Shown here: piece by piece, positions 2,551 through 20,980 of the stretch
How positions within the stretch are numbered: position 1 is the first letter of the stretch
How the letters are laid out: each line of letters opens with the position of its first letter
DNA from: Candidatus Scalindua sp. SCAELEC01
GTDB taxonomy: Bacteria; Planctomycetota; Brocadiia; Brocadiales; Scalinduaceae
NCBI GenBank assembly: GCA_004282745.1
Contig: SHMT01000009.1
Coordinates: forward strand, 39,039 to 63,038
Reading direction: 5' to 3'
Length of the DNA stretch: 24,000 nucleotides
The notes under the pieces: generated by a model
The model's input: only the letters and a program-made list of their open reading frames with translations
Database searches by the model: none
Told to the model about the DNA's origin: nothing
Translations under genes and position numbers: made by a program

Positions 2551-2957
2551 CAGTATACCTTCTTTATTAATTGTACCGTGAGAATTCCTTCAGAATACTC
2601 CGCTTTTATATTTTCAGAAACACACTTTGACTGCAGTGGTATTTTCCGCTCAAAATATCCATATGGCAACTCTTCAATATGGCACAAACCATCAATTGAA
2701 TCATTTGGATTAAGCCTCTCACCCCTGATATACAACACATCTTCCTGCTCGAGAGAGATATCAATATCCTCTTGCAGAGTACCCGGTAGGGCAGCGTTGA
2801 TTATAATCTCTTTTTGTAACTCATAGATATTTATCTGAGGCGTAAAGGCAATCTCTTTTGTTGTGATAAATCGAGAGAAATATTCATTGAACAGCTCATT
2901 AACGCTTTGTTGCAAAGTCGCAAATTCTTGCCATGGATCCCATTTTTCAAGAGTCAT
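2550..2957 (-). CDS. Hsp20/alpha-crystallin family small heat-shock protein
   Basis: 135 aa with the typical sHSP layout: N-terminal WDPWQEF...L, an alpha-crystallin-like core ([44 protein letters not shown]...) and a GILTVQL C-terminal strand. AGGAG lies 9 nt upstream of the ATG. Confidence 0.85.
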
Positions 2958-2998
2958 TCGTCTTTCTCCTTTTTACAATTTCTTCGTTAGAGTACGCC

Positions 2999-3015
2999 GC
3001 CAATACTTGTGCCAA
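2999..3015 (-). promoter_or_regulatory. Sigma-54-like -24/-12 near-match upstream of hsp20 (weak candidate)
   Basis: The minus strand reads TTGGCACAAGTATTGGC. The consensus is YTGGCACGrNNNTTGCW. The -24 GG and TTG spacing are correct, but the conserved C of the -12 GC is G. The site is ~45 nt upstream of the hsp20 ATG. Confidence 0.2.
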
Positions 3016-3110
3016 TAACATCTGTAATCCAATCCATACCATCTGCACTTCTGTCTGCAACAAAACTCTGATGTTACTCATCGGATGCGGCGTAAAGGAT
3101 ACAAAAAATC

Positions 3111-3443: not shown

Positions 3444-3572
3444 AATAGATATTGATAATACGGTCAAGAAGGGTATCATGAATGAAAATAAATGCTCTCG
3501 CCGAATGGTAGACGTTACCTTGGATGCAATAACGGATCATACGAGAAGTCAGTTTTGTTCCGAGTCTGCTAA

Positions 3573-3785
3573 GGGTCCAGAAAAAAAAATAACTTGTCGT
3601 TCTTGCCTGTCCGAATTGCTGGTAGGCCGGGCGGGCATCTCATTTTCAGGCCACCTTCGGCCTCTCTTCACTCGCAGTATCCTCGCTGTAACTCAGGCTA
3701 CGGCTGCGGTCCTGCTCGATCAGATCAACCAAATCTGATCTAAAACTGAGCGCAATAAAATAACAAGTTATTTTTTCCTGGACCC
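3573..3785 (-). mobile_element. MITE-like non-autonomous element, copy A (213 bp, inverted relative to the copies at 16.3 kb)
   Basis: Ends are GGGTCCAGAAAAAAAAATAACTTGT and ACAAGTTATTTTTTCCTGGACCC, which are terminal inverted repeats. TAA flanks both sides (3570-3572 and 3786-3788). The reverse complement aligns end to end with 16363..16543 at roughly 85% identity by eye, apart from a ~32-nt extra segment. No credible coding capacity. Confidence 0.8.
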
Positions 3786-3831
3786 TAAGCGCAATGTTTT
3801 GGGGTCAAAAAACCGGAAGGAAAAAGAGACA

Positions 3832-6800
3832 ATGGATAGCAAGGAAAGATTAGAGTGGTATCCCTATGCCCACAAAATGCCTATACGCAACCTCCACAAA
3901 TCTGCCCTACAGGGAAAGAGGGTCTTTCTCAGAGTCAACTATGATATTGTGAGAGACGGAAAGATTATTGACGACAGGCGTATCAGAGCAACAGTCATGG
4001 ACATCCGTCATATCCTGAAGAGTGGTGCAGATACCGTTATTATCGTTTCCCACAACGGAAAACGGGAAAATTTTTTTAAAGAAAAGAAGACGTCGGTTGG
4101 TGTAGTATCCGATGGAGAGTGCCATTCCGCTTTCAGTCTCAGGCCGGTCGCAAAAAGACTTACAGAGGTCTTGAGAGTGAAACGTCTTTTGACCGAAGAC
4201 GATGAAGTCCCCATGACAGACGAATGCATTGGAGAAAAGGCAAAATCACTGATAGCTCAAAAGGGGATCTTTCTGTTAGAAAATGTGATGTTCTGGAGCG
4301 GTGAGACATCGGAAGATGACAATGAGGTTATGGAGTTTGCAAGACAACTCCACGATACTACCCATTGTGATTTCTATGTCAACGCCGATCCGGTCTCTGC
4401 TCACATGGGTCAGCATGCATCACTCGGGCAAATAACCAGACTCATCCCAGGCCCAAAGGTGGCAGGCTTTCTCCTCACTCAGGAGCTCACGGTACTCGAA
4501 AATTTTATGAGACACCCTCATAAACCGGTAACGGCCATTATTGGTGGCGCCAACGTATCAGCCAAGGTCGAGGCAATGAGAAACCTCATAGTCCACGGAA
4601 AGATTGACAGACTCATCATCATAGGAGGCATAGCATTTCCCTTCCTTAAGGCACAGGGTTATGATGTAGACAACTGTATGCTCGAAAAAGATTCAGATCT
4701 ACAAACTCAGGCGCTTCGCAATGCAATTGTAGTGCTTGAATTGGCGAGGGGATACGGAGTGGATATAACGCTTCCCGTTGACCACATGATGGCAAAGCTT
4801 ACGGGTCTTGATCCAATAAACGTTAAGGTAAACGAAATAAAGGGACGTTTCTTAAAGATGAGGGCCTATGACATTGGCAACGAGACGATCGCCCTTATCA
4901 AGAAAAAGATGCGGGGTTCCAAAACCATCGTTTTCAACGGAATTGCCGGCAAATATGAAGATGAACTGTTTTGTAACGGTACGAACCGGATCCTTGACCT
5001 TGTTTTTTCCTATGAAGTGGAATCCAAGATCATCCTTGGACTTCACTGTGTTAAAGCGGCACAGAAAAGGCTTGGCACAAAAATCCCTCCTGGAAAGACA
5101 TACCTTTCTACCATGGGAGAAACAGGTTTAAAGCTCCTTGCCGGTGAGGACCTGACCGCATTGGACCATCTCGACGATCTTCCGACAAAAGCCCTCCATC
5201 AAGCAAAGGAACCTTTACGGGAGAGGATCAACCTGAATGCCGCAAACGTTGAGGAGTTAGAGGGATTCCTCAACATTAAAGGCAATATTGCAGCAAATAT
5301 CGTTCGCTATAAAGAGGAGATAGGTGAGTTTGATAGGGTGAGTCAGCTATTTTCAGTACCTAATCTCACCCTTAATGACTATGCAAAAATACGGGAACAT
5401 ACCGTTGCCATGCCTAGCCCCCTTGAAGTGGCAGAGAGACAATTTGCCGTCGTTGCAGATATGCTTAAGCTTCCGAGTTTTCTCAAACGAAAGTTGCTCA
5501 CACCCGAAAGGATAGAGACAGTACGCCTCTTAGGTGGTGAAACAAATGCATATCGCGTCCACCATAACACCTCACGAGGCCCAGCAAAGGGAGGTTTCAG
5601 AGAACACCCGGAGGTAACGCTTGATGAGGCAAGGGCCCTTGCCATCTGGATGACGTGGAAGTGTGCTATCGCGGGTATCCCTTATGGAGGTTCAAAAGGG
5701 GGCATTATCATCAATCCAAGGGATATTCTGGAGAAAAAAGATGCATTAATAATCAGAGAGTATAGCCGTGAATTGAAGAACCGGGGTGCCTGCGGACCAC
5801 ACCTGGATATCCCTGCCCCTGATGTCAACACCAATGCCACCAAGATGGCGTGGTTTGTTGATGAATACATCAAGACATCGCTCGAAAATAAAGACTTTTC
5901 TGATTGGCAAGCAGACGAAACTATCTCTTTAGAGAAAATCGTCCATGAATTCAGCTCAATAAGCTCTCTGCCCACAACCCCTATCGATACGCCCTACCTT
6001 GATACCTGTTTAGAAATAATAAAAAAACATCCGGGAATACGGTGCAAGGCGATAGCGGTTGTTACCGGCAAACCGGACACAAAAGGCGGCTCTCTCGGCA
6101 GGGCAGAATCAACAGGACGTGGAGTATTTATCGCCTTAAAGAAGGCGGCAAAGCATAAGAACATAGAGCTGCAAGGCGCTACTGCTGCAATACAGGGCTT
6201 TGGTAACGTGGGACGTCCACCCGCAAGATTTTTACATGAAGCAGGGGCAAAAGTGATTGCCATTACGGATGCCAGTGGCGGGATCTACAACCCGAACGGC
6301 CTGGACATAGAAGCCGTATTTACCTATGTCGACTCAGAAGGATCTGGATTCCTGAAGGGATTTCCGGGAGGGAGAGACCTATCAAACGAGGGTATTTTCG
6401 GATTGGACGTCGACTTCCTCATCCTCGCCGCACTGGAAAACGCCATCGATCGGAATGCGTACAATGTTAAAGCCCGGATCATTGTGGAGGGAGCCAATGG
6501 ACCGGTTACGCCACAAGGAGATAAAATTGTAACCAGAAAAGGGACCTTTGTTACCCCAGACATAAGCACCAACCTGGGAGGTGTCTTTGTCTCTTACCTC
6601 GAATGGGTCCAAAATCTCAAGAATGAGCGTTGGGACTTAAACAAGATTAACGATCTGCTTGAGGATAACGTTTGCATGATCTTTGATGACATCATCAAGA
6701 TCGCTCAAGACCTCAAGATTGAGATGAGGACTGCAGCGTCAATTATGGCAATAGGTCGTGTGGCCGTCGCCGAACTTTCTAAGGAAATTGCCCGTTTAGT

Positions 6801-7104
6801 TATCTATGGAAGCAACGTAACCGAAGAGATACTCACTACCGTTCAAAACCATTTAGAATATTTAAGCAATGATTTGATGATGAAAATCCCGCTCGATTAC
6901 TGGACACTCGTATCCCTCCTATCGAACCTTGAAAAAGTGTTAGCCTCAAACAAGATTGCCGATGCAGACGTTGGAAGAATAGCAGAGGACATCTATGCCA
7001 AAGCCACCTGCCTCTTTGCCTCATTCGTTAAGGCAAAACCCGGAAATGACGACCTCTTGATGGCACTGGCCGCATTGCCGGAACGTGCGAGGAAGATGCT
7101 ATAA
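3832..7104 (+). CDS. Multidomain fusion: PGK-like domain (~3880-5180), ComEA-type helix-hairpin-helix (~5227-5400), Glu/Leu/Phe/Val dehydrogenase (~5415-6775), uncharacterised C-terminal tail
   Basis: One uninterrupted frame. The ORF track starts at TTG 3799; I prefer ATG 3832, preceded by GGAAGGAAAAAGAG. PGK-like motifs: LQGKRVFLRVNYDIV, DDRRIRA, VSHNGKR, LLENVMF, YVNADPVSAHMGQHAS, IIGGANVSAK, FNGIAGKYE, LSTMGETG. HhH segment: INLNAANVEELEGFLNIKGNIAANIVRYKEEIGEFDRVSQLFSVPNL. GDH motifs: GPAKGGFREHP, IPYGGSKGG, DIPAPDVNTN, MAWFVDEY, TGKPDTKGGSLGR, IQGFGNVG, EGANGPVTP, GGVFVSYLEWVQN. Confidence 0.85.
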   Translation: MDSKERLEWYPYAHKMPIRNLHKSALQGKRVFLRVNYDIVRDGKIIDDRRIRATVMDIRHILKSGADTVIIVSHNGKRENFFKEKKTSVGVVSDGECHSAFSLRPVAKRLTEVLRVKRLLTEDDEVPMTDECIGEKAKSLIAQKGIFLLENVMFWSGETSEDDNEVMEFARQLHDTTHCDFYVNADPVSAHMGQHASLGQITRLIPGPKVAGFLLTQELTVLENFMRHPHKPVTAIIGGANVSAKVEAMRNLIVHGKIDRLIIIGGIAFPFLKAQGYDVDNCMLEKDSDLQTQALRNAIVVLELARGYGVDITLPVDHMMAKLTGLDPINVKVNEIKGRFLKMRAYDIGNETIALIKKKMRGSKTIVFNGIAGKYEDELFCNGTNRILDLVFSYEVESKIILGLHCVKAAQKRLGTKIPPGKTYLSTMGETGLKLLAGEDLTALDHLDDLPTKALHQAKEPLRERINLNAANVEELEGFLNIKGNIAANIVRYKEEIGEFDRVSQLFSVPNLTLNDYAKIREHTVAMPSPLEVAERQFAVVADMLKLPSFLKRKLLTPERIETVRLLGGETNAYRVHHNTSRGPAKGGFREHPEVTLDEARALAIWMTWKCAIAGIPYGGSKGGIIINPRDILEKKDALIIREYSRELKNRGACGPHLDIPAPDVNTNATKMAWFVDEYIKTSLENKDFSDWQADETISLEKIVHEFSSISSLPTTPIDTPYLDTCLEIIKKHPGIRCKAIAVVTGKPDTKGGSLGRAESTGRGVFIALKKAAKHKNIELQGATAAIQGFGNVGRPPARFLHEAGAKVIAITDASGGIYNPNGLDIEAVFTYVDSEGSGFLKGFPGGRDLSNEGIFGLDVDFLILAALENAIDRNAYNVKARIIVEGANGPVTPQGDKIVTRKGTFVTPDISTNLGGVFVSYLEWVQNLKNERWDLNKINDLLEDNVCMIFDDIIKIAQDLKIEMRTAASIMAIGRVAVAELSKEIARLVIYGSNVTEEILTTVQNHLEYLSNDLMMKIPLDYWTLVSLLSNLEKVLASNKIADADVGRIAEDIYAKATCLFASFVKAKPGNDDLLMALAALPERARKML

Positions 7105-7158
7105 AGGGTTTATTAAAAAAAGTTGCAAACAGTGCTCACATATCAAAAATTGTATTAT

Positions 7159-7187
7159 ATGTAGTACATTTCCCACGCGTACTACAT
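7159..7187. promoter_or_regulatory. 9-bp perfect inverted repeat upstream of the RHH antitoxin gene; candidate autoregulatory operator
   Basis: ATGTAGTAC (7159-7167), 11 nt, GTACTACAT (7179-7187). It lies 32 nt upstream of the ATG at 7219, and TGTATTATA (-10-like) overlaps its left arm. RHH antitoxins typically bind palindromes in their own promoters. Confidence 0.4.
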
Positions 7188-7218
7188 TTGTGTTCGATTG
7201 TTTGGGGGGTAATCAATA

Positions 7219-7431
7219 ATGACTTCACTACGCCTTGATAAAGAAACTGAAAATAGACTGGCACATCTGGCAAAAGCGACAGGGAGAACCAAAACGTTCT
7301 ATATCCGCAAGCTCATCGAGGAGCATATTGACGACCTAGAGGACAGATACATTGCCGAAGAGCGGCTAGAAAACCCCGCTAAGCGCGTTACAAGTAAGGA
7401 AATGAGACAAAAACTTGGCCTGGAACATTGA
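7219..7431 (+). CDS. Ribbon-helix-helix antitoxin (RelB/ParD/CopG-like)
   Basis: 70 aa. The N-terminal beta-strand plus two helices are typical of RHH antitoxins (MTSLRLDKETENRLAHLAKATGRTKTFYIRKLIEEHIDDLED). An acidic, flexible C-terminal part follows. Confidence 0.75.
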   Translation: MTSLRLDKETENRLAHLAKATGRTKTFYIRKLIEEHIDDLEDRYIAEERLENPAKRVTSKEMRQKLGLEH

Positions 7432-7468
7432 ATATGACAGCAGAGTTTTATTTGAATCCTATCGCTGA
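7415..7468 (+). pseudogene. Truncated RelE/ParE-type toxin remnant (17 codons)
   Basis: A frame overlapping the antitoxin 3' end reads (TTG)AWNIEYDSRVLFESYR-stop. The M-A-W-x-I-E-Y opening resembles the N-termini of RelE/ParE-family toxins, which normally overlap their antitoxin stop. The frame ends after 17 codons and no toxin-length ORF follows before pqiB. Confidence 0.4.
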
Positions 7469-7562
7469 ATCACCAGACCCATCTTCATTTTCCACATCGT
7501 CAGAAATATAGCCAGCCATCAAAGCTTAGGCGAAGCTCAATACTGTTAAATATACCCATCGC

Positions 7563-18358: not shown

Positions 18359-20980
18359 ATGGAAAATAATTTCTCATTTATTAAGGACGAAAAATTTGAT
18401 TCCAAGATGCTATACGATCCCTATATAACGGAGGCTTTTATTCCAAAAGAGTATAATTTAAAAACTTCCGGCAATACCCTTCAACTAGAAAACAAGAATG
18501 AATTACGACACGCTGTAGGGGTTGTTGCCGCTCGATCCCTAAAATATTTCAGCACCAATGGAGAAGATTTTAACATATTTCGCACCCGAAATATGGCCGT
18601 CTGGTGGCTGAGGCACATATACAATAGCTTTAACTGGTGGAAGGCTTATGTCGTAAATGCTGAGGGAGAACGAAAAGATATGCCTATGTTGTACATAGGA
18701 GAAAAATTTGGCTCTGCAACAGGTCATAAGGAAAGGGAGGCGGACATTGCACTCAGTGCCTTTGAGAACGCTCGCTGTATCGTTAATCCCGAATTTAAAG
18801 GGGGCTCAATTTTTGCCGTTGGGTACAGCAATAGGGGTGAATTGTTCAATTCACCTGATATGTACGGAACAAAGACCATTGTCGGAAACAAATATAGTGG
18901 AGCAGGCGTACGCGCAGATCTACCAGTTACACAAAATCTCACATTGATGGCTAAACATACACTGAAAAAGAGAAACGAAAAACCAACACCAGATAACATC
19001 CGAGCAGAAATCAAAAAGATGAGGATTCTGACTCTGGAGAGATCAAGACATAAAAAGCTTGCAGAAACCATATCAAAAATCGGAGCTACGGCAATTCTGG
19101 TTAAAGACGACGACCTCACGCCAACGTTCGCGGCAGCAAGAAACGAAATAGACCTTATTCTTGGAGTAGGGGGTGTTCCTGAAGCAGTGCTGAGCGGAAT
19201 AATAGTTGAACATTTTCGCGGTGAAATGACGTTGCGGATATTACCTGCCGAAGTTGCCCTGGAAGAAAAACTGCTCTGCAGACATGAGAATTGGGAAGAT
19301 TTTAGAAAAAATGAGATAGACACTTTGAAAAATTTCAAAATTGTGCGGCCCGGTAAACAAAAAGCGGGAGAAATGCCCTGGAATCGACTCCTTACTTCAA
19401 AAGAACTGGTAAAAGGGAAGAGCGCTGTTTTTACTGCCGGCATAATAAAAAAAAACCCCTGGATACAATTCCCTAATGGTAGCGAAGTCCCAGGGGTGAC
19501 CATTAATCCTGAAACGGGTGACGTTAAAGTACATGTCGTTCGTATTACCTGGAAGACTATTGAAATTATTCCCATTATCTACAAAACAACGATTGGTAAA
19601 TATAGGAGTGATTATGAGCGTGGCCAGCATTCAGACGGAGAAACGGGCGCACGCTTACTACTTGAATTAGGAAAGGCATATGCTGAGTTCGGTCTCTTCG
19701 AAGAGGCGCGGGATTGTGTGCAAAAAGCGAGAAAACAGTTTCCGGCAAAAAACGACTTAACTTTGAAATGTAATTCCGTTTACGAATACATTTCAGGAAT
19801 TGAGTTCCTTACAAAAGCGTCACTGCAAACTCCAAAAGAGATAATAGAACACTTTGCTAAGTCTGACTGCTTAGAAAAGGAGGAGAAGGATGCCCTGAGA
19901 GACAGGAAAATGTTTAAAAGGTTTTATGAATTTATGGGAGATAAAAACAGTCATGCAAAAAAATATAATGATGCGCTCTGTTGCTACAGAGAAGCCTTAC
20001 GATATAGACCCCATGAGTTGAAATTGCACCGAAAGGTTAACTCGATAGAGATGAGAGACATAATAACAGAGTACTTTCATCGAATTGACAAAATATACCG
20101 GGAATCAAACTATGAAGAGCCCGATGATTGGAATTGCCATAAACTTATCACGGCCCTTGAAGTTTTTTACGGTAGACCAAAATCGGTAATATTTTCATGC
20201 AGAAAACCCTGGCTAATATTTTTCAGGAGAACCGTATTGCATGGAGAAACACCTTCTCAAAAATTGGCAATTTTAATTACGCTCCTTAGATTATACAAGA
20301 CACTCTGCAGGGCAAACGACAATGATCTCTCCGCTTTATTGAATAATGAATTTCGAATAAATCCAGAAGAGACAATGATTATTTTAGCGTATAGAAAAAA
20401 CCGTACAATATTCGATTCTATAGAAAAACTCTATTTTGCACAGGGGTTGAATCGCAATTGCCTGACTAAGCTTCTTTTTCCTCGAGTAAAAGTGGCAAGC
20501 CGTAATGAGATAGAAGATTCCGAGATTCCACTGAGTATTAGCCTAGTAGAGGCTATGGAACAGAGGTGCAAAAATATCTTGGAAGAGCTTAAGGAGGGAT
20601 ACAAAGACGAAGCCCAAGAGCATTCATATGCTGTAGCAGAGGCCTACCATTATGTTGGCTTGGCACTTTATGATTCGGGGGACTGGAAAGGTTCAAAAAT
20701 TTATTATAACCAGGCAATAGATCGATTTCAGGAAATAATAGAAAAATTTGAAGGGATCACACCGGTAAATGCACAATATCGGATCGGTAATCTATATGAA
20801 GAGTTGGCCTTATTGTTTGAGACGGAACAAAAAGCCTATTACCGTAGAGCAAAAGCGGCATATTGGTGCATTATAGACGAAAAGAAGTCTATCGAACTGT
20901 TTGGTTCCATACGGGACCTCACCTATATAAGAACCGAACAAGCAAAAGACAAAGTAAAAAATATTGATAAAGATTTGTAA
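18359..20980 (+). CDS. Fusion of a GlpX-like (class II fructose-1,6-bisphosphatase) fold (~aa 50-420) with a ~440-aa TPR-like/helical-repeat C-terminal region
   Basis: It is collinear with GlpX: AEGERKDMPMLYIGEKFG, EADIALSAFENAR, SPDMYGTKTIVG, ILTLERSRHKKL, ILVKDDDL, LGVGGVPEAVLSGII..GEMTLRIL. The C-terminal half has TPR-like helix pairs (ARLLLELGKAYAEFGLFEEARDCVQKA, YNDALCCYREALRY, AEAYHYVGLALYDSGDWKGSKIYYNQAIDRF, YRIGNLYEE). Confidence 0.8.
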   Translation: MENNFSFIKDEKFDSKMLYDPYITEAFIPKEYNLKTSGNTLQLENKNELRHAVGVVAARSLKYFSTNGEDFNIFRTRNMAVWWLRHIYNSFNWWKAYVVNAEGERKDMPMLYIGEKFGSATGHKEREADIALSAFENARCIVNPEFKGGSIFAVGYSNRGELFNSPDMYGTKTIVGNKYSGAGVRADLPVTQNLTLMAKHTLKKRNEKPTPDNIRAEIKKMRILTLERSRHKKLAETISKIGATAILVKDDDLTPTFAAARNEIDLILGVGGVPEAVLSGIIVEHFRGEMTLRILPAEVALEEKLLCRHENWEDFRKNEIDTLKNFKIVRPGKQKAGEMPWNRLLTSKELVKGKSAVFTAGIIKKNPWIQFPNGSEVPGVTINPETGDVKVHVVRITWKTIEIIPIIYKTTIGKYRSDYERGQHSDGETGARLLLELGKAYAEFGLFEEARDCVQKARKQFPAKNDLTLKCNSVYEYISGIEFLTKASLQTPKEIIEHFAKSDCLEKEEKDALRDRKMFKRFYEFMGDKNSHAKKYNDALCCYREALRYRPHELKLHRKVNSIEMRDIITEYFHRIDKIYRESNYEEPDDWNCHKLITALEVFYGRPKSVIFSCRKPWLIFFRRTVLHGETPSQKLAILITLLRLYKTLCRANDNDLSALLNNEFRINPEETMIILAYRKNRTIFDSIEKLYFAQGLNRNCLTKLLFPRVKVASRNEIEDSEIPLSISLVEAMEQRCKNILEELKEGYKDEAQEHSYAVAEAYHYVGLALYDSGDWKGSKIYYNQAIDRFQEIIEKFEGITPVNAQYRIGNLYEELALLFETEQKAYYRRAKAAYWCIIDEKKSIELFGSIRDLTYIRTEQAKDKVKNIDKDL

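Follow-up and report, generated by a model that had tools for sequence, protein, structure and literature searches.

A gene of Scalinduaceae anammox bacteria joins a phosphoglycerate kinase homolog lacking the residues of the kinase reaction to a predicted glutamate dehydrogenase

Results

An open reading frame (ORF) on the forward strand of a 24,000-nucleotide (nt) stretch of Candidatus Scalindua sp. SCAELEC01 DNA (contig SHMT01000009.1, positions 39,039 to 63,038; the whole stretch is referred to as the window) encodes a protein in which a homolog of phosphoglycerate kinase (PGK) is joined to a glutamate dehydrogenase (GDH). The modules lie in the order PGK-like (amino acids (aa) 24-439), ComEA-type helix-hairpin-helix (HhH, 464-522), GDH (531-982), and helical tail (983-1090), and an NCBIfam scan agreed with Pfam on the PGK, HhH, and GDH modules (Table 1). 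The encoded protein is 100% identical to one (P0001) of 'Candidatus Scalindua sp. AMX11', and its NCBI label is 'phosphoglycerate kinase'.

Table 1. Features of the PGK-GDH fusion gene and its upstream region (positions within the window)
Feature	Position (nt)	Strand	Evidence or key residues
Promoter candidate, sigma-70-like, TTGATA-N16-TATCAT	3452..3479	+	Consensus match; conserved in two closest genomes
Complete ORF	3832..7104	+	1090 codons + stop, uninterrupted from ATG 3832
PGK-like N-domain (aa 24-205), former 3-phosphoglycerate site	3901..4446	+	Pfam, alignments
PGK-like C-domain (aa 206-439), former nucleotide site	4447..5148	+	Pfam, alignments
Linker (aa 440-463)	5149..5220	+	AF2 pLDDT <50 for residues 450-467
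ComEA/TEFM-type HhH pair (aa 464-522)	5221..5397	+	Pfam HHH_3 (PF12836)
GDH substrate/oligomerization domain (aa 531-679)	5422..5868	+	K586, K610, K622 (catalytic), D664
Family-specific 60-aa insert (aa 680-739)	5869..6048	+	T. maritima GDH alignment
GDH NAD(P)-binding domain and closing helices (aa 740-982)	6049..6777	+	R757, GFGNVG 789-794, D813, N889, S921
C-terminal helical tail (aa 983-1090, 108 aa), orphan fold	6778..7101	+	AF2, alignments

The start at ATG 3832 agrees with the N termini of the closest orthologs and is preceded by a ribosome-binding-site-like GGAAGGA at 3815-3821; an in-frame TTG at 3799 is an alternative start that would give a product of 1101 aa. A preliminary description of this locus, generated from the letters of the DNA and a list of its ORFs, had placed three modules in a single unbroken frame of ~1,090 codons, which was confirmed, as no stop interrupts the ORF. 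All of the motifs that it quoted for the PGK-like part (RVNYDIV, SHNGKR, LENVMF, ADPVSAHM, GGANVSAK, and STMGETG) and for the GDH (KGGFR, GGSKGG, PAPDV, GFGNVG, and EGANGP) were found in the translation. The AlphaFold2 (AF2) model of the full protein has a mean predicted local distance difference test score (pLDDT) of 84.2 and a predicted template modeling score (pTM) of 0.60.

The GDH part matches the Pfam families ELFV_dehydrog_N (PF02812, aa 572-679, 135 bits) and ELFV_dehydrog (PF00208, aa 752-981, 221 bits). A sequence search of the PDB aligned Thermotoga maritima GDH to aa 531-679 and 740-982 (2TMG at 1e-102), and with Foldseek the GDH of the AF2 model superposes on T. maritima GDH with a TM-score of 0.92. 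Across 27 family members and 25 ordinary GDHs, residues K586, K610, K622, D664, R757, N889, and S921 and the motifs GFGNVG and EGANGP are invariant. We take K586, K610, and K622 to be the equivalents of K89, K113, and K125 (the catalytic lysine, in GGSKGG) of Clostridium symbiosum GDH, and D664, R757, and S921 to be those of its D165, R205, and S380. The Rossmann GxGxxG signature (GFGNVG, 789-794) and the acidic residue after beta-2 (D813) are also present. The description of this GDH as intact-looking is thus borne out, as the catalytic and substrate residues are all in place.

Small hexameric GDHs of Thermotoga, Pyrococcus, and Thermus (1B26/2TMG, 1GTM, and 3AOE) share both ELFV domains with the fusion protein at ~40-49% identity, as well as all of its catalytic and glutamate-specificity residues; what the fusion has beyond them is a 520-aa N-terminal extension (the PGK-like part and the HhH), the 60-aa insert, and the 108-aa helical tail. 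The NCBIfam model GdhA_Arch scores 377 bits against a cutoff of 750, with the match in two stretches divided by the insert, which indicates homology below equivalog-level membership. No match to Bac_GDH (PF05088) was found in the protein when Pfam was scanned at E up to 1. On sequence and modeled structure, this GDH is of the small, Thermotoga/Pyrococcus-like, NAD(P)-dependent type and is predicted to be hexameric, and it is very probably active and specific for glutamate.

The N-terminal ~430 aa had been described as collinear with PGK, and this was verified: the Pfam PGK family (PF00162) matches aa 24-439 over profile positions 4-379 of 379 (E 1e-74, 252 bits), and PDB PGKs are matched at E 1e-46. 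True PGKs (EC 2.7.2.3; 1PHP, 1VPE, and human PGK1) are collinear with the fusion over the two-lobe fold at 28-38% identity; unlike those monomeric enzymes, the fusion protein is joined to a GDH and its catalytic sites are replaced. To compare the sites, 34 full-length orthologs, human PGK1, and seven true PGKs were aligned. The numbering of human PGK1, used below, was checked against D23, N25, and R38; the alignment was cross-checked with phmmer alignments to 1PHP, 1VPE, and 3Q3V.

In the N-domain of this protein, N36 and D38 stand for D23 and N25, K77 and R78 for R65 and P66, M153 for R122, and M192 for R170; R50 (R38) and H74 (H62) are kept. Its C-domain has N241 for K215, L402-G-L-H405-C406 for GGGDT, and S426-T-M-G-E430 for STGGG, and keeps K245 (K219), N369 (N336), and E376 (E343). 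Most of these replacements are shared by the family: D23 is Asn and P66 is Arg in 34/34 members, N25 is Asp, R122 is Met, and R170 is Met in 31/34 each, and R65 varies (Lys or Val). At the position of K215, 30 members have Asn, 2 have Arg, and 2 have Asp. GGGDT has become LGLH(S/C/G), with LGLH in 31 of the 34 and FGLH in one more, so that the Mg-binding Asp of PGK (D374) is replaced by an invariant His. STGGG has become STMGE, with G396E in 33/34. The PGK positions that the family keeps are R38, H62, H169, E192, G212-G213-A214, K219, G237-G238, N336, G337, G340, E343, and T393.

Taken site by site, the 3-phosphoglycerate (3-PG) site (D23, N25, R38, H62, R65, R122, and R170) retains R38 and H62 alone, which are also the two residues left of the five-residue basic patch. 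Of the phosphoryl-transfer set, K215 is lost, although K219 and R38 are kept. The helix N termini that grip the phosphates of the Mg-nucleotide, GGGD(T/S) and STGGG(A), are replaced by LGLH(S/C/G) and STMGE. In the adenosine/ribose pocket, 7 of 10 positions are kept (among G213, A214, G237, G238, L313, N336, P338, G340, V341, and E343). The substitutions R122M, R170M, and K215N, the rearranged DxN pair (D23N/N25D), and the loss of GGGD, which the preliminary description had drawn from PGK motifs, are therefore all present in an alignment with true PGKs, and the catalytic residues did not prove to be conserved after all.

K215, the 3-PG arginines, the Mg-binding Asp, and the glycine-rich helix ends are needed for the PGK reaction. 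With K215, R122, and R170 lost, along with the Asp that binds Mg and the two glycine-rich helix ends that grip phosphate, the sequence is incompatible with this reaction, and we infer that the PGK-like domain is unable to carry out phosphotransfer between 3-PG and ATP. That the protein is a still working PGK fused to a GDH, as its database annotation implies, is very improbable. The match to Pfam PGK across the whole profile and the NCBI name would favor such an activity, but K215N, R122M, R170M, D374H, the change of GGG to LGL, and G396E all hit residues that are invariant in the true PGKs compared, and S. profunda has a separate canonical pgk beside gap (see below). The PGK/TIM (triose-phosphate isomerase) equivalog of NCBIfam scores 241.6 bits against a cutoff of 883, which is weak evidence, this being a bifunctional model of 645 positions of which the PGK half alone can be matched.

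Pfam HHH_3 matches the segment that follows the linker with an E value of 1.5e-10 in the full protein and 1.9e-12 when scanned alone (41-47 bits versus a cutoff of 27), and the nearest PDB relatives of the HhH are EEPD1, TEFM, and ComEA. The GhG hairpins, however, are degenerate: neither of the two phosphate-contacting GhG hairpins is present, the protein having IKG and NLT in their place and most orthologs having PGV in the second hairpin. Of the ComEA-like HhH that had been described, the homology to HHH_3 stands, but binding of nucleic acid is doubtful, because the hairpins are degenerate, the TIGR00426 cutoff is missed (25.6 bits versus 53.1), and AF2 confidence is low. These results also bear on whether the protein is a nucleic acid-tethered trigger enzyme, in which the HhH would bind DNA or RNA and GDH occupancy would signal glutamate status to gene expression or serve localization to the nucleoid. 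Bacillus subtilis RocG is a GDH that moonlights in transcription control, the HHH_3 match lies above the Pfam gathering score, and the nearest solved HhH relatives are DNA-associated; set against this, the state of the GhG motifs, the TIGR00426 score, the AF2 confidence, and a conservation of the HhH that is lower than in the domains on either side make this role quite improbable.

The insert has 60 residues where T. maritima GDH has 7, a net gain of ~53 aa, and the tail has 108 aa, in line with the ~55-aa insertion and ~115-aa tail that had been described. Two helices and a conserved motif, TPYLDxC...HPxxxC, are predicted or found in the insert. The tail is a predicted helical bundle (AF2 pLDDT ~90 in the full-length model and 77.5 alone) with an invariant core, DDLMxxIPLDYWTL. 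Nothing in Pfam at E up to 10 matched either the tail or the insert, and a Foldseek search of the PDB with the tail gave nothing significant (best E 0.43).

Selection on each module was estimated as the ratio of nonsynonymous to synonymous substitution rates (dN/dS, Nei-Gojobori) against the two closest genomes. The ratio is 0.06-0.08 for the PGK-like N-domain, 0.07-0.09 for the PGK-like C-domain, and 0.05-0.09 for the GDH domains; it is 0.06-0.22 for the linker and HhH, 0.27-0.46 for the 60-aa insert, and 0.23-0.26 for the C-terminal tail. Mean pairwise identity is 0.82 and 0.81 for the PGK lobes compared with 0.87 and 0.88 for the GDH domains. At the former PGK ligand positions the mean frequency of the major residue is 0.92, versus a PGK-like domain average of 0.88, and 74% of the ligand sites have a major-residue frequency of >=0.9, versus 61% of the domain. 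By these measures the former PGK cleft is remodeled and fixed, with no sign of decay. The PGK sites had been called eroded, and this needs qualification: the catalytic residues are indeed lost, but the replacements are themselves conserved, which is not random erosion.

The same data weigh on a structural role, in which the PGK-like module, HhH, and tail would be decorations that affect oligomer stability, salt tolerance, localization, or protein contacts. Loss of the PGK catalytic residues, the orphan helical nature of the tail and insert with their conserved motifs, and the degenerate hairpins of the HhH are compatible with a scaffold. There would be little reason for a pure scaffold to conserve a former active-site cleft more strongly than the rest of the domain, to retain K219, N336, E343, R38, and H62, or to show a dN/dS (0.06-0.09) as low as that of a catalytic domain, and we regard a scaffold-only role as unlikely.

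About 39 protein clusters with the four-domain architecture, at 67-100% identity, were found in NCBI, JGI, ENA, and Logan data, and their sources are exclusively Scalindua, Scalinduaceae, or Brocadiales metagenome-assembled genomes (MAGs). When one genome per GTDB species was scanned with a family-specific N-terminal profile, 22 genomes matched; these belong to Scalindua species, unnamed Scalinduaceae, 'Ca. Subterrananammoxibius californiae', and a groundwater 'Brocadiaceae' bin. One match, on a short contig binned as Thermodesulfobacteriota, is suspected to be mis-binned. An intact ORF of 1090-1097 aa with signature motifs of all modules is present in 17 of the 22 genomes (a few of these ORFs lack an exact match to one of seven test patterns); of the remaining five ORFs, three reach the end of a contig and two are broken or fragments.

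Among 1.84 billion cluster representatives, a phmmer search with aa 1-523 recovered one full-length family cluster (at the 50%-identity level) and three short fragments. A search with the GDH and tail recovered the family at 66-74% identity, followed by ordinary, tail-less GDHs of 420 aa at 41-44%. From these searches, we conclude that the four-module architecture is, in the sequences available, restricted to a Scalinduaceae-centered anammox clade. No PGK-HhH-GDH protein, and no PGK-GDH fusion or pseudoenzyme of this kind, was found in the literature searched. The earlier statement that no characterized PGK-GDH fusion was known is in keeping with both the literature and the single 50%-identity cluster.

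An assembly or gene-calling artifact that fused separate pgk and gdh genes might be considered because the window comes from a MAG and because some orthologs look split or truncated (L024, L028, P0048, and P0053). The truncated orthologs mostly reach contig ends, however, and the ORF is continuous in 17 species genomes and on dozens of independent contigs from four data sources. The conservation of the fusion, which had been proposed as a check, thus gives no support to a frameshift or join; the uninterrupted ORF in 17/22 species genomes excludes an assembly join, and we consider the chance of an artifact negligible. As a separate observation, an in-frame stop codon ends the ortholog in L024 (Ca. 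Scalindua sediminis), at 6001-7549, after 270 aa, yet tblastn matches residues 5-523; the gene in this MAG is frameshifted, a pseudogene, or misassembled.

Evidence from Scalindua profunda was taken from the supplementary tables of a published study (PMC3655542), with ORF lengths estimated from the ratio of reads to coverage, calibrated on scal00747 (1584 nt). In that genome a 'phosphoglycerate kinase', scal03192, lies between scal03191 (glyceraldehyde-3-phosphate dehydrogenase) and scal03193 (ribulose-5-phosphate epimerase), and both scal03191 and scal03192 were detected in the proteome (PMC3655542). By the reads/coverage ratio scal03192 has ~390 aa. A second 'Phosphoglycerate kinase', scal01433, adjoins the 1-acyl-sn-glycerol-3-phosphate acyltransferase gene scal01434 and is transcribed at 2.05x average coverage (rank 288) (PMC3655542). 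In the S. rubra-like genome L003 the fusion gene likewise adjoins an acyltransferase gene, as scal01433 does, and we infer that scal01433 is the fusion ortholog in S. profunda; the assignment rests on synteny because its ORF appears to be only ~510 aa long by the same ratio. S. profunda also has a stand-alone GDH, scal00747, of 58.7 kDa (PMC3655542). Since this species has both a gap-pgk cluster and a stand-alone GDH, the fusion would be a paralog of both housekeeping functions. Together with the purifying selection on the PGK-like domain, the separate gap-pgk cluster strengthens the view, already put forward in the preliminary description, that the domain is a pseudoenzyme.

Outside the family, the best matches of the PGK-like domain are divergent PGK paralogs, at 283-169 bits compared with ~160 bits for housekeeping PGKs. 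The first of these, P0163 (283 bits, 42% identity to the PGK-like domain), has a signal-peptide-like N terminus; it is a singleton, with ordinary PGKs as its next relatives. The metagenomic proteins P0169 and P0170, the latter carrying a TIM fusion, are also near relatives, and two giant proteins of Ca. Omnitrophota, P0166 (5805 aa) and P0167 (7327 aa), each contain a PGK-like domain in which the catalytic residues are intact. Every PGK catalytic residue is retained in these outgroup paralogs (P0163, P0169/P0170, and P0166/P0167). Like the fusion, the paralogs of this 'SHNG-clade' have SHNG in place of SHLGRP, D163A, and an NGTAG-type loop; unlike it, they keep the catalytic residues, have no GDH partner, and are uncharacterized. 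In a rough neighbor-joining tree, the SHNG-type paralogs and the fusion family are sister groups.

Of the two deepest members of the family, P0034 comes from Ca. Subterrananammoxibius; both it and P0033 keep R65, R122, and R170 but have LGLH. Because they retain the 3-PG arginines yet lack GGGD, a stepwise loss is indicated, and the comparison suggests that loss began at the nucleotide-phosphate/Mg site and reached the 3-PG basic patch later, in Scalindua proper.

Two further observations concern PGK relatives. The N termini of the metagenomic proteins P0163, P0169, and P0170 are hydrophobic and signal-peptide-like, and an exported PGK-like protein would be unusual. In addition, the 727-aa metagenomic protein P0043 has Pfam matches to GGDEF, PGK, and a response-regulator receiver (order not given), with the PGK catalytic residues intact, and is a further unusual PGK fusion.

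Upstream of the fusion gene, HSP20-DnaJ genes lie divergently in the three closest genomes only; the neighbors in other genomes differ, and because synteny is not conserved it offers no operon clue. The promoter candidate (Table 1) would imply a 5' untranslated region of ~350 nt. An Rfam scan of the window, leader included, gave no match, and the long 5' untranslated region therefore holds no known riboswitch. An inverted repeat, GATCAGAT...ATCTGATC, lies in the leader at about 3719-3741. On the opposite strand, ~135 nt within 2947-3100 (-), upstream of the HSP20 start (2957), are conserved in the two closest genomes; they contain a 44-aa ORF, 2947-3081 (-), that has no Pfam match, and the stretch may serve HSP20 as a leader or regulatory region, or may be a small ORF.

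Immediately after the fusion gene, 7219-7431 (+) encodes a 70-aa RHH/TraY/DUF6290-like protein of antitoxin type with no evident toxin partner. Elsewhere in the window, 18359-20980 (+) encodes an 873-aa protein with a partial FBPase_glpX match (PF03320, E 2e-36, profile 33-271 of 307) followed by TPR repeats, which is also found in L005 (18223-20844). With it, the genome has a second domain that resembles a gluconeogenic enzyme and sits in an unusually long protein.

Discussion

These results show that an intact GDH and a PGK homolog without the PGK catalytic apparatus are fused in a protein that is conserved, under selection, and restricted to one clade. Judged by sequence, the protein is a PGK homolog that falls outside functional PGK membership and a GDH at the level of its residues.

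We propose, at a rough probability of 0.5, that the PGK-derived two-lobe module is a noncatalytic ligand-binding domain that modulates the attached GDH. The GDH part would interconvert glutamate and 2-oxoglutarate plus NH4+. The PGK-like module appears to keep the two-lobe hinge fold and part of the adenosine/ribose pocket, and closure of the hinge on a ligand would modulate the GDH. A ligand-binding role is suggested because purifying selection acts as strongly on the remodeled cleft as on the active site of the GDH. The most plausible ligand would be an adenine nucleotide, proposed because K219, N336, E343, and the pocket glycines are retained, or else a small metabolite that is less anionic. 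Coupling, or decoration of the oligomer, would fall to the degenerate HhH, the 60-aa insert, and the helical tail. In this way, energy or carbon status would gate the formation of glutamate by the protein (for assimilation or as an osmolyte) or its deamination (yielding ammonium for anammox). A physiological relevance is plausible. Anammox bacteria have glutamate as an osmolyte (PMC13597103), and for Scalindua an alternative supply of ammonium from peptides and amino acids has been proposed (PMC3655542).

Several observations weigh against a ligand-gated GDH. The nucleotide pocket is kept only in part, with L313Y, P338I, and V341K changed, and E430 (G396E) and H405 (D374H) might block phosphate binding altogether. 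The linker and HhH were modeled by AF2 at low confidence. No conserved operon partner was found among the genomes compared; the gene stands alone, which gives no hint of a pathway. Finally, the ORF of scal01433 looks truncated, and its product does not appear in the proteome table of S. profunda (PMC3655542).

The remodeled cleft could instead catalyze a new reaction, coupled to glutamate/2-oxoglutarate chemistry, which would make the protein bifunctional. The cleft residues in question are N36, D38, R78, N241, K374, H405, E430, and a Tyr for L313; these invariant replacements include potential catalytic or metal ligands (His405, Asp38, and Glu430), purifying selection on the PGK-like domain is strong, and fusions often unite steps of one pathway. 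A non-kinase PGK fold would be without precedent, however, phosphotransfer of any kind is hard to reconcile with the loss of the Mg-binding Asp and of both glycine-rich helix ends that bind phosphate, and pathway neighbors are not conserved, so that we view a new enzyme as improbable. A broader proposal, that the PGK module has newly evolved to sense a metabolite or to act as a catalyst and that closure of its hinge would control or feed the GDH, is one that we put forward only tentatively.

A ligand-responsive PGK-like module on a GDH has partial parallels in known systems. Bacterial L-GDH115/180 (Bac_GDH) and mammalian GDH, with its antenna and its allostery by ADP and GTP, are GDH cores enlarged by regulatory modules. 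Their nucleotide-responsive control serves as a working analogy for the fusion, which differs from these large GDHs in having no PF05088 match, no antenna, and a PGK homolog as the appended module. We know of no report of a PGK homolog appended to any GDH. PGK is N-terminal to another metabolic enzyme, as in the fusion, in the Thermotoga PGK-TIM protein (fus gene) and its relatives P0040-45; there, both halves are catalytically intact and both are glycolytic. Similar in concept are the 'dead' PGK-like proteins of kinetoplastids (PGKL, with the order PGK-CNB-HTH-TM, and PAS-PGK), which are predicted to be inactive and are combined with sensory or DNA-binding-like modules (PMC7729029). These are eukaryotic, have other partner domains and no dehydrogenase, and are of independent origin.

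The name 'phosphoglycerate kinase' is misleading for this protein, and automated pathway reconstructions that use it therefore count a PGK and miss a GDH; the annotation needs correction. For enzyme evolution, the family would be a bacterial example of a glycolytic fold turned into a conserved noncatalytic module with intermediates still visible, namely the outgroup paralogs with intact sites and the deep members that keep the 3-PG basic patch. If the GDH is modulated as proposed, this would be the first time that a glycolytic-kinase fold has been seen in bacteria as an allosteric domain of an amino acid dehydrogenase.

Scalindua makes up most of marine anammox, and how it acquires and partitions ammonium and glutamate is a question of its physiology. 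A clade-specific, strictly conserved, and apparently transcribed GDH with an appended pseudo-kinase is a candidate regulator of this ammonium/glutamate node. If so, Scalinduaceae would have a switch for glutamate synthesis or for the release of ammonium from glutamate, the latter fueling anammox in ammonium-poor oceans.

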